Origin: a virus
Virus record (IMG/VR): IMGVR_UViG_3300029217_000180
Length of the DNA: 64,000 bases
Direction: 5' to 3' (one strand)
In this document: positions 36,020-37,655 of the stretch, piece after piece
How positions within the stretch are numbered: the first letter of the stretch is position 1
Layout: every line of letters starts with the position of its first letter
Notes under the pieces: model-generated
What the model saw: only the letters and a program-made list of their open reading frames with translations
Told to the model about the DNA's origin: nothing
The model's database searches: none
Translations under genes and position numbers: made by a program

Positions 36020-36078
36020 GGGACGCTCACAGCAAATTATTGGATATGACTGTTAATCATAAAAACCAATAGCGTCCT
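36020..36078 (+). ncRNA. 59-nt armless tRNA-like hairpin element (anticodon-like loop CTGTTAA) with CACAGCAAAT motif
   Basis: stem GGACGCT/AGCGTCC, inner stems TATTGG/CCAATA and ATGA/TCAT, 7-nt loop CTGTTAA. Confidence 0.45.
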
Positions 36079-36105
36079 GAATGATCTTACAAACAATTTT
36101 ATTAT

Positions 36106-36186
36106 GGGACTCCTACAGCAATCACAATGGTTAAAACAATGTCTGCAAAACAATGTGAAGTGGTTCAATTCCACAAATGAGAGTCC
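36106..36186 (+). ncRNA. Y-RNA-like / tRNA-mimic element with T-arm and TACAGCAAT motif, abutting Ro60-like gene
   Basis: terminal stem GGGACTC/GAGTCC, T-arm GTGG-TTCAATT-CCAC, D-loop-like AATGGTTAAAA; ends 18 nt before start codon of 36204-37655. Confidence 0.5.
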
Positions 36187-36203
36187 TGGAAAGAGAGGAA
36201 ACA

Positions 36204-37655
36204 ATGAGCTTCGCAGATGCAATGAGAAAAGACGGTTCATTTACCAGAACCGAAAACGGTGCTGTGGCTTTGAATACCACAGGAGACGCAAGACTGGATT
36301 TGTTCGGCACAATCGGATCCCTGAGAGAAGCTGATGAGGGCAGAATCGAAACACTGTTCGCAGAGGCATACAATCAGGATGCTCTTTTTGCCACAAAGAT
36401 TGCGTTCTATGCAAGGGATATTCGTGGAGGTCTTGGAGAAAGAAAGACTTTCAGAACAATCATCCGTTACATGGCGGAGAAACACCCGGAAGCACTCAGA
36501 CCGAACCTTGATTTGATTGGAGTATTCGGAAGATATGATGATATGTATTCTCTGATCGGAACTCCGTTAGAGGAAGATATGTGGGCTGCCATGAAGAAAC
36601 AGTTTGAGGAAGATTTGAAGAACCTCAATGACGGCAAGGCAATTTCCTTACTTGCAAAGTGGATTAAGACTGCGGATGCAAGCAGCAAGGAGACACGCAG
36701 ACTTGGCGTTATGACCGCACAGAAACTTGGCTATCCGGTCTACAATTTCAAGAGAATTGTCCGTAGCATGAGAAAACAGATCGGCGTTGTTGAAAGCCTT
36801 ATGTCTGCCGGAAAGTGGGATGAGATTAAATACCCAGAAGTTCCGAGCCGTGCAATGATGATTTACCGCAAGGCATTTATGAAGCATGATGAGGCACGAT
36901 TCAATGAATTTATCGGCAAGGTAGAAAAGGGAGATGCAAAGATCAATGCCTCAACACTATTCCCTTACGATATTGTTGAGAAGATCCTTTACGGCAGAGA
37001 GAGCAACAAGGTACTTGAAGCCCAGTGGAAAGCCTTGCCGGATTATGTGGAGAAAGGAACAAACGCTTTAGTTATGGCGGATGTGTCCGGTTCCATGAGA
37101 GGCAGACCTATGGCAACATCAATCGGTCTTGCAATCTATTTTGCAGAGAGAAATGTGGGTGCATACCACAATCTGTTTATGACATTCTCTGACAGACCAG
37201 AGACGGTTATTCTGAGGGGAGAAACCCTTGAACAGAAGATCCGCAACGTAAGCAGAGCAAATTGGGATAATAACACAGACCTTAAAGCTGCTTTTGAGAG
37301 GGTTCTTGAAATTGCGGAAAAACACAATACTCCGCAGGAGGAAATGCCGAAAGCAATCGTTGTCATATCAGACATGGAAATTGACTGTTGTGGAAACCGT
37401 GAGTGGTCTTTCTATGACAAGATGGCAAATAAGTTCCACAAGGCTGGTTATGTAATCCCAAACATTATCTTCTGGAATGTGAATAGCAGACACGAGGTAT
37501 TCCATGCAGATCACAACCGCAAGGGCGTGCAGCTTGCAAGCGGACAGTCCGTGACGGTATTCAAACAGATTCTGCAGAACCTTGGTTACAACCCGGTTGA
37601 GGCAATGGAGAACACAATCAATTCTGAGAGATATGATTGCATCACAGTTGAATAG
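36204..37655 (+). CDS. vWA (MIDAS) domain protein, probably Ro60/TROVE-like RNA-binding protein (DUF2828-type)
   Basis: LVMADVSGSM MIDAS motif, ..TFSD.. and IVVISDMEID vWA strands in C-terminal half; ~480 aa; N-terminal ARDIRGGLGER helical region; genomic context next to tRNA-like RNAs and phage RtcB. Confidence 0.55.
   Translation: MSFADAMRKDGSFTRTENGAVALNTTGDARLDLFGTIGSLREADEGRIETLFAEAYNQDALFATKIAFYARDIRGGLGERKTFRTIIRYMAEKHPEALRPNLDLIGVFGRYDDMYSLIGTPLEEDMWAAMKKQFEEDLKNLNDGKAISLLAKWIKTADASSKETRRLGVMTAQKLGYPVYNFKRIVRSMRKQIGVVESLMSAGKWDEIKYPEVPSRAMMIYRKAFMKHDEARFNEFIGKVEKGDAKINASTLFPYDIVEKILYGRESNKVLEAQWKALPDYVEKGTNALVMADVSGSMRGRPMATSIGLAIYFAERNVGAYHNLFMTFSDRPETVILRGETLEQKIRNVSRANWDNNTDLKAAFERVLEIAEKHNTPQEEMPKAIVVISDMEIDCCGNREWSFYDKMANKFHKAGYVIPNIIFWNVNSRHEVFHADHNRKGVQLASGQSVTVFKQILQNLGYNPVEAMENTINSERYDCITVE

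Follow-up and report, generated by a model that had tools for sequence, protein, structure and literature searches.

What is encoded at the end of a viral tRNA array, where several small structured RNAs are followed directly by the gene of a protein with a von Willebrand factor A (vWA) domain? This question is raised by IMG/VR virus record IMGVR_UViG_3300029217_000180, of which a stretch of 64,000 nucleotides, called here the window, was analysed. An earlier reading, made from the letters alone (the sequence-only reading), had proposed that the product of 36204-37655 is a Ro60-like protein accompanied by Y-RNA-like RNAs, and the analysis reported here supports that overall interpretation. The protein has the Ro60 fold, and the RNAs belong to a family that is defined by a 7-bp stem, an overhanging G and an unpaired ACAGCAA motif. 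In our view the two probably constitute a phage ribonucleoprotein of the Ro60/Y-RNA type with a new class of RNA, acting on tRNA-related processes in infection; we put the probability of this reading at about 0.6.

A Ro60 fold and a family of small RNAs

The window protein, encoded on the + strand at 36204..37655, has 483 amino acids, and a good ribosome-binding site lies ahead of its ATG at 36204. Pfam assigns it to DUF2828 (1e-43) and DUF7788 (1e-39), and also to VWA_2, while its PHROG family, 850, is annotated as 'RNA-binding protein'. The vWA domain that had been read from the sequence is borne out, with a complete metal-ion-dependent adhesion site (DxSxS...T...D) composed of D293, S295, S297, T358 and D390; all five residues are unchanged across 44 diverse and 38 closer homologues. 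The domains expected earlier were TROVE plus vWA, or DUF2828. DUF2828 and vWA were found, but TROVE (PF05731) was absent from hmmscan even at E≤1, which returned only DUF2828, DUF7788 and vWA families. Fold comparison shows an N-terminal HEAT-repeat ring followed by the vWA domain, which is the Ro60 fold. The relationship to TROVE/Ro60 is visible in the fold comparison only, because Pfam and searches of the Protein Data Bank, made with phmmer and with a 44-sequence profile, gave just vWA matches and recovered no Ro60 by sequence. The protein therefore has the Ro60 fold, yet it is no TROVE member at the level of sequence, where it is filed as DUF2828/DUF7788.

This family is very large, with 6,588 clusters at 50% identity. 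The sequence-only reading had considered such a module at the end of a phage tRNA array unusual, which did not hold, as homologues occur in 709 cultured phage records. DUF2828 is carried by Felix O1-like, Listeria P100-like, Staphylococcus, Campylobacter and mycobacterial phages, and certain mycobacteriophage homologues are already annotated as 'Ro-like RNA binding protein'. An earlier study mentions Mimivirus-like DUF2828 proteins (bioRxiv 10.1101/033464). No paper on the function of a DUF2828 protein was found in a literature search. The closest genomic relatives of the window protein are from Lachnospiraceae, including a 96%-identical copy in a 355-kb contig of Diplocloster hominis (L161; loci are numbered with the prefix L).

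Three RNAs on the + strand precede the gene. S1 (35676..35747) has the stem GUGACGC/GCGUCAU with an overhanging G, the motif CUUACAGCAAUC and a long internal hairpin. S2 (36020..36079) has the stem GGGACGC/GCGUCCU with its G, the motif UCACAGCAAAU and a mimic of an anticodon stem-loop, AUAUGA-CUGUUAA-UCAUAA. S3 (36106..36188) has the stem GGGACUC/GAGUCCU with the overhanging G, the motif CUACAGCAAUC and a T-arm mimic, GUGG-UUCAAUU-CCAC; its 3′ end lies about 15 nt ahead of the ATG and abuts the ribosome-binding site. Each consists of a 7-bp terminal stem, 1-3 nt and then ACAGCAA(W), and the motif YACAGCAAW is predicted to be single-stranded in minimum-free-energy folds. The three RNAs, their stems and shared motif, both mimics and the position of the last RNA immediately 5′ of the gene all agree with what the sequence-only reading had described. 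R1, a covariance model built in this analysis from seeds that all had the exact motif, matches the three RNAs at 35674-35749 (45.7 bits), 36018-36081 (52.4 bits) and 36104-36190 (27.6 bits, E 4e-4), the last being outside the seed set. Folding z-scores are -2.97, -3.72 and -1.58 for S1, S2 and S3, respectively.

The motif follows the strand of the gene, with ratios of 429:2 in 80 close relatives and of 340:24 in 80 diverse DUF2828 loci, whose proteins have 35-45% identity to the reference protein P0267. In the diverse loci, a perfect closing stem of 6-8 bp is present at 3 sites on the - strand and at 167 on the + strand, the latter being 49% of + strand sites versus 12% of random positions. 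In a seed alignment of 60 non-redundant copies, the 7-bp stem is 92% paired, with 114 double-sided changes versus 34 in shuffles, seeds having been picked for pairing, so that independent data weigh more; when the partner column was slid, pairing was at most 47%. A proposed eighth pair was unsupported in the same alignment. An independent set of 80 Lachnospiraceae loci, which shares no sequence with the seeds, gave 78 R1 matches that are 99.8% paired and covary at three pairs. Taking seed and independent sets together, double-sided changes occur at 3-7 pairs with pairing of 92-99.8%.

At E≤0.01, where E-values are rough owing to a shortened calibration, R1 gave 101 matches in 62 diverse loci, with at least one in 45 of them. 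All of the 179 R1 matches are on the strand of the gene, and most lie no more than 600 nt 5′ or 300 nt 3′ of it. The third pair (G-C), the 3′ overhanging G and ACAGCAA are essentially invariant in these matches, the invariance of the motif being partly by construction of the seeds; most copies of ACAGCAA have a U on their 5′ side and W on their 3′ side. The interiors are G-poor and unrelated from copy to copy, and the sequence of the stem is clade-specific. Among eight cultured phages, R1 matches at E≤0.01 lie beside the gene in seven, those of Staphylococcus, Campylobacter, Bacillus, Enterococcus, Listeria, Mycobacterium and Salmonella (Felix O1-like), and the Vibrio phage has a weak match (E 0.41). 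The hosts of phages with RNAs beside the gene span Firmicutes, Actinobacteria, Proteobacteria and Campylobacterota. No Rfam 15 family covers these RNAs, a literature search found no paper that describes them, and a search for the motif in phages gave nothing relevant.

The reciprocal comparison, from the side of the RNA, used the pattern AAGACACTNACAGCAA, which has 15 specified bases and is expected to give many chance matches in IMG/VR. DUF2828 was found in 27 of the 120 loci obtained, and R1 confirmed RNAs in 39 of the first 100. Two further loci merit description. At L084:1579-2024, a full-length GOLLD RNA (RF02032, 198.8 bits versus a cut-off of 150) precedes by about 1 kb a DUF2828 gene of the same orientation, and RNAs of the family lie between them, which suggests that one locus can combine large ornate RNAs, tRNA arrays and the ACAGCAA module. 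At L244:4513-4602, in Staphylococcus phage S-CoN_Ph11, the tiny annotated 'hypothetical protein' CDS0055 overlaps an RNA copy of 48.9 bits. Mini-ORFs (short open reading frames) that adjoin DUF2828 genes in this and similar records are probably mis-annotated RNA genes.

Permuted modules in a tRNA array

Many of the motifs have no terminal stem and are preceded instead by a hairpin, made of the 3′ strand, the G, a short loop and the 5′ strand, which runs into ACAGCAA. Examples are CAUCAU[guuu]GUGAUG-cug-ACAGCAA in the clade of the window, and GUGUCUA[guau]UAGACAC in clades with terminal stems UAGACAC/GUGUCUA-G. In the permuted form, a loop closes what is otherwise the open end of the same module; this form is present at 34% of + strand motifs versus a background of 11%. 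The three RNAs first recognised in the window are real, but they are not the only ones: the window holds at least nine copies of the module, four of them in tRNA-like genes at 35126-35671. ACAGCAAW is found at 16 sites versus 6.3 expected, a number that was reached in none of 100 shuffles, and eight of the 16 are grouped on the + strand at 34908-36122.

In the four tRNA-like genes, T1 to T4, all on the + strand, the permuted form stands in for the anticodon arm. T1 (35126..35246; 43.7 bits with the tRNA model RF00005) has a 62-nt insert with UGUCAU[gcuccau]GUGACA-CGG-ACAGCAAUA, T2 (35279..35398; 40.1 bits) a 55-nt insert with CAUCAU[guuu]GUGAUG-CUG-ACAGCAAAUC, and T3 (35449..35567; 41.9 bits) a 57-nt insert with AGAUCAU[guua]GUGAUCU-CA-GCAGCAAUC. 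In T4 (35570..35671; folding z-score -2.98), an acceptor stem, a D-like arm and a T-arm are combined with GGAACAU[loop]GUGUUCC-GC-ACAGCAAUC in place of the anticodon arm. T1 to T3 pass the RF00005 gathering score (40-44 bits) and are not called by ARAGORN. They resemble tRNAs in their acceptor stem, D-arm, T-arm and location in a tRNA array; unlike in tRNAs, 55-62 nt carrying the module replace the 7-nt anticodon loop with its usable anticodon. T1 to T3 are unlikely to decode, because neither a sensible anticodon nor a canonical 37/38 intron can be reconstructed. The possibility that T1 to T4 are intron-containing tRNAs spliced with RtcB was rejected, since the inserts take part of the anticodon stem and the entire loop and leave no canonical 37/38 junction or plausible anticodon. 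Two more permuted hairpins of the + strand are AUACCC[gguggutta]GGGUGU-AUC-ACAGCAAA at 34885..34915 and GGAAU[uguu]GUUCC-CCG-ACAGCAAU at 31204..31228, the latter between tRNA-Phe and tRNA-Met. The former lies in a stretch of about 450 nt (34587-35040, tRNA-Ser to tRNA-Met) that has no tRNA gene or Rfam match and may be a larger unrecognised structured RNA.

Mimicry of tRNA is also seen in the terminal-stem RNAs. Out of 176 distinct ones, 40 have a T-arm, versus 0.3 in shuffles, and 96 have a 7-nt loop with the U33/R37 signature, versus 8.6 in shuffles, although about 34 of these 96 are T-loops themselves. The other U33/R37 loops show anticodon-like triplets, the commonest being GUU (12) and UUU (12), with GCU, GAU, GUA and others. 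What stays constant in the family is the stem-G-ACAGCAA module; what varies mimics portions of a tRNA.

The RNA cluster and the protein gene are located, co-oriented, at the end of an array of 11 tRNA genes on the + strand (31127..35124; ARAGORN and Rfam). A strong promoter-like site, TTGACA-17-TATACT, was found ahead of the array by a promoter scan (30992-31020). Directly 3′ of the protein gene, on the + strand, a terminator-like hairpin, UAGGUGG...CCACCUA followed by a U run, can be read at 37668..37702; a simple terminator scan did not list it, as its loop is over the limit of the scan. A position within or at the end of a tRNA array is also found for DUF2828 genes of unrelated phages. The RtcB RNA ligase gene that had been noted in the window is real (Pfam 9.6e-62); its extent is 11218..12501 on the - strand rather than 11218-12423, and it is 24 kb from the DUF2828 gene. 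RtcB directly adjoins the DUF2828 gene, co-oriented, in seven Lachnospiraceae loci (L175, L196, L201, L217, L230, L233 and L240), and in Listeria phage LMTA-57 it follows the gene at a distance of 1.3 kb. Salmonella carries an rsr-yrlBA-rtcBA operon, which this linkage echoes.

Other features of the window were noted in passing. A phage integrase and an FtsK/SpoIIIE-family ATPase are encoded at 13402-15290 (-), adjoining the RtcB region. The window is probably from a temperate Lachnospiraceae gut phage, because it has an integrase and because of the 96%-identical copy in the Diplocloster hominis contig. Between S1 and S2, a putative gene of 82 codons (35755-36003) contains one ACAGCAAA and has a weak PHROG match to a D5-like transcriptional regulator (E 5e-4). 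Two genes 3′ of the Ro-like gene, a radical-SAM protein is encoded at 38108-38803 (Pfam 2.6e-6, below cut-off; PHROG 17662, 5e-59). ARAGORN reports at 33373-33446 a tRNA whose anticodon has four bases (acca) and to which it assigns no amino acid; the Rfam tRNA model does not report this tRNA at gathering score. An int-alpA RNA (RF02996, 43.8 bits versus a gathering score of 35.8) is found at 48379-48446, downstream of the portal gene in the region of structural genes.

Resemblance to Y RNAs and to Class I RNAs

The closest known systems are Ro60/Rsr with Y RNAs, including bacterial YrlA and the Ro60 of phage phiLo with Yrl1/Yrl2. YrlA unites a Ro-binding stem with a tRNA-like domain (PMC4201824), and the phage RNAs follow this logic with a different motif and, in T1 to T4, where acceptor, D and T arms are joined to the stem module, with a topology that is permuted relative to YrlA. 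Where Y RNAs have the Ro-binding helix and GNCGAA, the phage RNAs have a 7-bp stem, an overhanging G and ACAGCAA. They differ further in the number of copies, up to nine or more per genome, in the circularly permuted form within tRNA scaffolds, and in their site in or at the end of tRNA arrays. Membership of YrlA itself was rejected. Against a gathering cut-off of 69 bits for RF02553, scores in the RNA region of the window are 19-22 bits and fall on tRNA-like positions, not on S1 to S3. At 33967-34068, a sub-threshold match (31 bits) runs across two adjacent tRNA genes, a kind of false positive against which the authors of YrlA cautioned, and a match of 38 bits in a dense tRNA array at L083:150-252 is probably the same artefact.

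A second resemblance is to the Class I RNAs of Dictyostelium. These are 42-65 nt long, with a short terminal stem in which pairing and not sequence is conserved, and right after its 5′ strand they have an unpaired 11-nt motif, CCUUACAGCAA; a G at the 5′ end of the RNA and CUGU at its 3′ end are conserved as well (PMC7919456). They are abundant, free and cytoplasmic, and according to Kjellin et al. 2021 (PMC7919456) they are missing from organisms other than Dictyostelia. Like them, the phage RNAs have a median length of about 60 nt, a short terminal stem with compensatory changes and a 3′ end in ...C-U-G; an unpaired motif of about 11 nt follows the 5′ strand, with the caveat that R1 was trained on exact-motif seeds, and reads YYACAGCAA in phages. 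The motif of S1, CUUACAGCAAUC, is identical to the Class I consensus, CUUACAGCAAU. In both groups the interior is G-poor and variable, with occasional T-arm-like (GGUUCGAUCC) or CUGUUAA hairpins, and certain published amoeba sequences hold such T-arm-like (CCUAGGUUCGAUCCCUAGC, UUGGUUCGAAUCCGA) or CUGUUAA hairpins. The only Rfam matches on S2 and S3 are to the Class I family, RF01414, at 26.8 and 22 bits, below its gathering cut-off of 41.5.

R2, a covariance model made from 29 dictyostelid sequences only, was run over 502 kb and gave 56 matches at E≤10, of which 53 are on the strand of the gene and 3 on the other. Twelve have E<0.05, where about 0.05 would be expected, and all 12 are at positions of phage RNAs, with a best E of 0.0013 and scores of at most 25 bits; S2 has 21.4 bits (E 0.012). 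RNAs of Staphylococcus, Salmonella and Listeria phages are also matched. The phage RNAs therefore resemble Class I RNA statistically. They differ in that phage stems have 7 bp with sequence preferences of their own, while amoeba RNAs have their own DUSE promoters, a eukaryotic element, and the only direct binder shown for them is the RRM protein Rnp1A/CIBP. The fourth pull-down partner of the Class I RNA DdR-21 is DDB_G0281243, of unknown function (bioRxiv 10.1101/2020.04.05.026054). In the supplements of PMC7919456 there was no entry for DDB_G0281243 or DUF2828, and conserved DUF2828 peptide motifs matched unrelated proteins only.

The pattern scan of IMG/VR also led to a giant virus. On the metagenome-assembled contig IMGVR_UViG_GVMAG-M-3300017963-53_000001 (L249:120-716), R1 has three matches of 41-44 bits, and the copies (AAGACAC-UA-ACAGCAAUU...GUGUCUU-G) alternate with tRNA-Leu and tRNA-Arg genes. 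Besides a major capsid protein of nucleocytoplasmic large DNA viruses, the contig encodes Rpb5 and an Rpb3/11-like subunit, and the 11.3 kb examined showed no DUF2828 gene. It is a tentative idea, which we hold to be somewhat more doubtful than probable, that viral RNAs and dictyostelid Class I RNAs form a single family, whose members are what DUF2828-type Ro60-like proteins of phages, giant viruses and eukaryotes naturally bind. If so, Class I RNAs would be the amoeba equivalents of Y RNAs, perhaps acquired from viruses, and not an invention tied to multicellularity; the DUF2828 partner would be DDB_G0281243 or another dictyostelid protein.

Explanations and significance

In the ribonucleoprotein that we favour, the stem-G-ACAGCAA module, with its 7-bp stem, invariant third G-C pair and ACAGCAA 1-3 nt past the 5′ strand, would be the site bound by the protein and the counterpart of the Ro-binding helix of Y RNAs. 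The tRNA-like parts, whether a T-arm, an anticodon stem-loop or a whole tRNA body, could anchor the protein to tRNA-directed enzymes or nucleases, in the manner of YrlA with Rsr. The particle would serve surveillance or repair of tRNA and other RNA in infection, with RtcB where the two are linked. We infer that the protein binds the module, that the RNAs are expressed and processed, and what the particle does physiologically. Several observations weigh against this reading. The protein has no TROVE match, the Ro-binding helix and GNCGAA of Y RNAs are not seen in the phage RNAs, and the YrlA cut-off is not reached. At E≤0.01, 17 of the 62 diverse loci with DUF2828 have no R1 match; conversely, 17 loci with clear RNAs, giant-virus contig included, had no DUF2828 in the stretch examined, so adjacency is not obligatory. 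RtcB is in the flanks of just 13 of 248 loci, and alignments fitted to a model lean towards the modelled structure.

That the RNAs are lone decoys or sponges for host nucleases of tRNA-targeting defence, or for tRNA-modifying enzymes, while the DUF2828 protein acts separately, is unlikely. The variety of anticodon-like triplets and the T-arms, far above chance, would suit such a role, as would the location in tRNA arrays and the loci without DUF2828. However, what is invariant is not the tRNA-like part but the stem, the G and ACAGCAA, a combination found in no tRNA, and the clade-specific stem, the strand of all 179 matches and their proximity to the gene (mostly <600 nt) fit a dedicated protein partner. 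Slightly less likely still is that the RNAs act in cis, either as signals for processing or stability of the tRNA-array transcript or as autoregulatory sites in the DUF2828 leader, rather than as free RNAs in trans. The position of S3 against the ribosome-binding site speaks for this and counts against the favoured ribonucleoprotein; the tRNA-like packing with spacers of a few nt, and the single promoter-like site before the array with a single terminator-like hairpin after the gene, also agree with action in cis. It does not readily account for RNAs that lie downstream of the gene, kilobases away in tRNA arrays, within tRNA-like scaffolds or in a giant-virus contig without the gene, nor for as many as nine copies in one genome, and the look-alike amoeba RNAs are abundant, free and 42-65 nt long (PMC7919456).

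We consider it very improbable that the locus simply represents divergence of a canonical Rsr/Ro60-YrlA system: the Ro60 fold, the tRNA-like RNAs and the sub-threshold YrlA matches are what it would predict, but TROVE is lacking in Pfam, motif and topology differ from those of YrlA, and the YrlA matches (19-38 bits versus 69) fall on tRNA or tRNA-pair positions. Least credible of all are functionless decayed tRNA genes or short repeats whose likeness to Class I RNA arose by chance. Their place at the end of a tRNA array and their resemblance to tRNA fragments would allow it, yet decay is already contradicted by the covariation and distribution data, that is, by compensatory stem changes around an invariant motif with wholly different interiors, and by the occurrence beside the gene across the phyla named above and without it in one giant-virus contig. 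The 12 R2 matches, all at RNA positions, also argue against chance.

The phage ribonucleoprotein remains our preferred explanation, and the results bear on three subjects. Many annotated 'intergenic gaps' and tiny hypothetical ORFs that flank phage tRNA arrays are structured RNA genes. How Dictyostelium Class I RNAs act has yet to be explained, and a near-identical architecture in phages and in one giant-virus contig provides a testable lead. Finally, the very common DUF2828 proteins can now be assigned a fold, that of Ro60, together with a candidate RNA ligand whose binding module is defined, and tRNA arrays and RtcB place them in a pathway context. Model phages can therefore serve directly as experimental systems for Ro/Y-RNA biology, and also for tRNA repair or counter-defence in phages.

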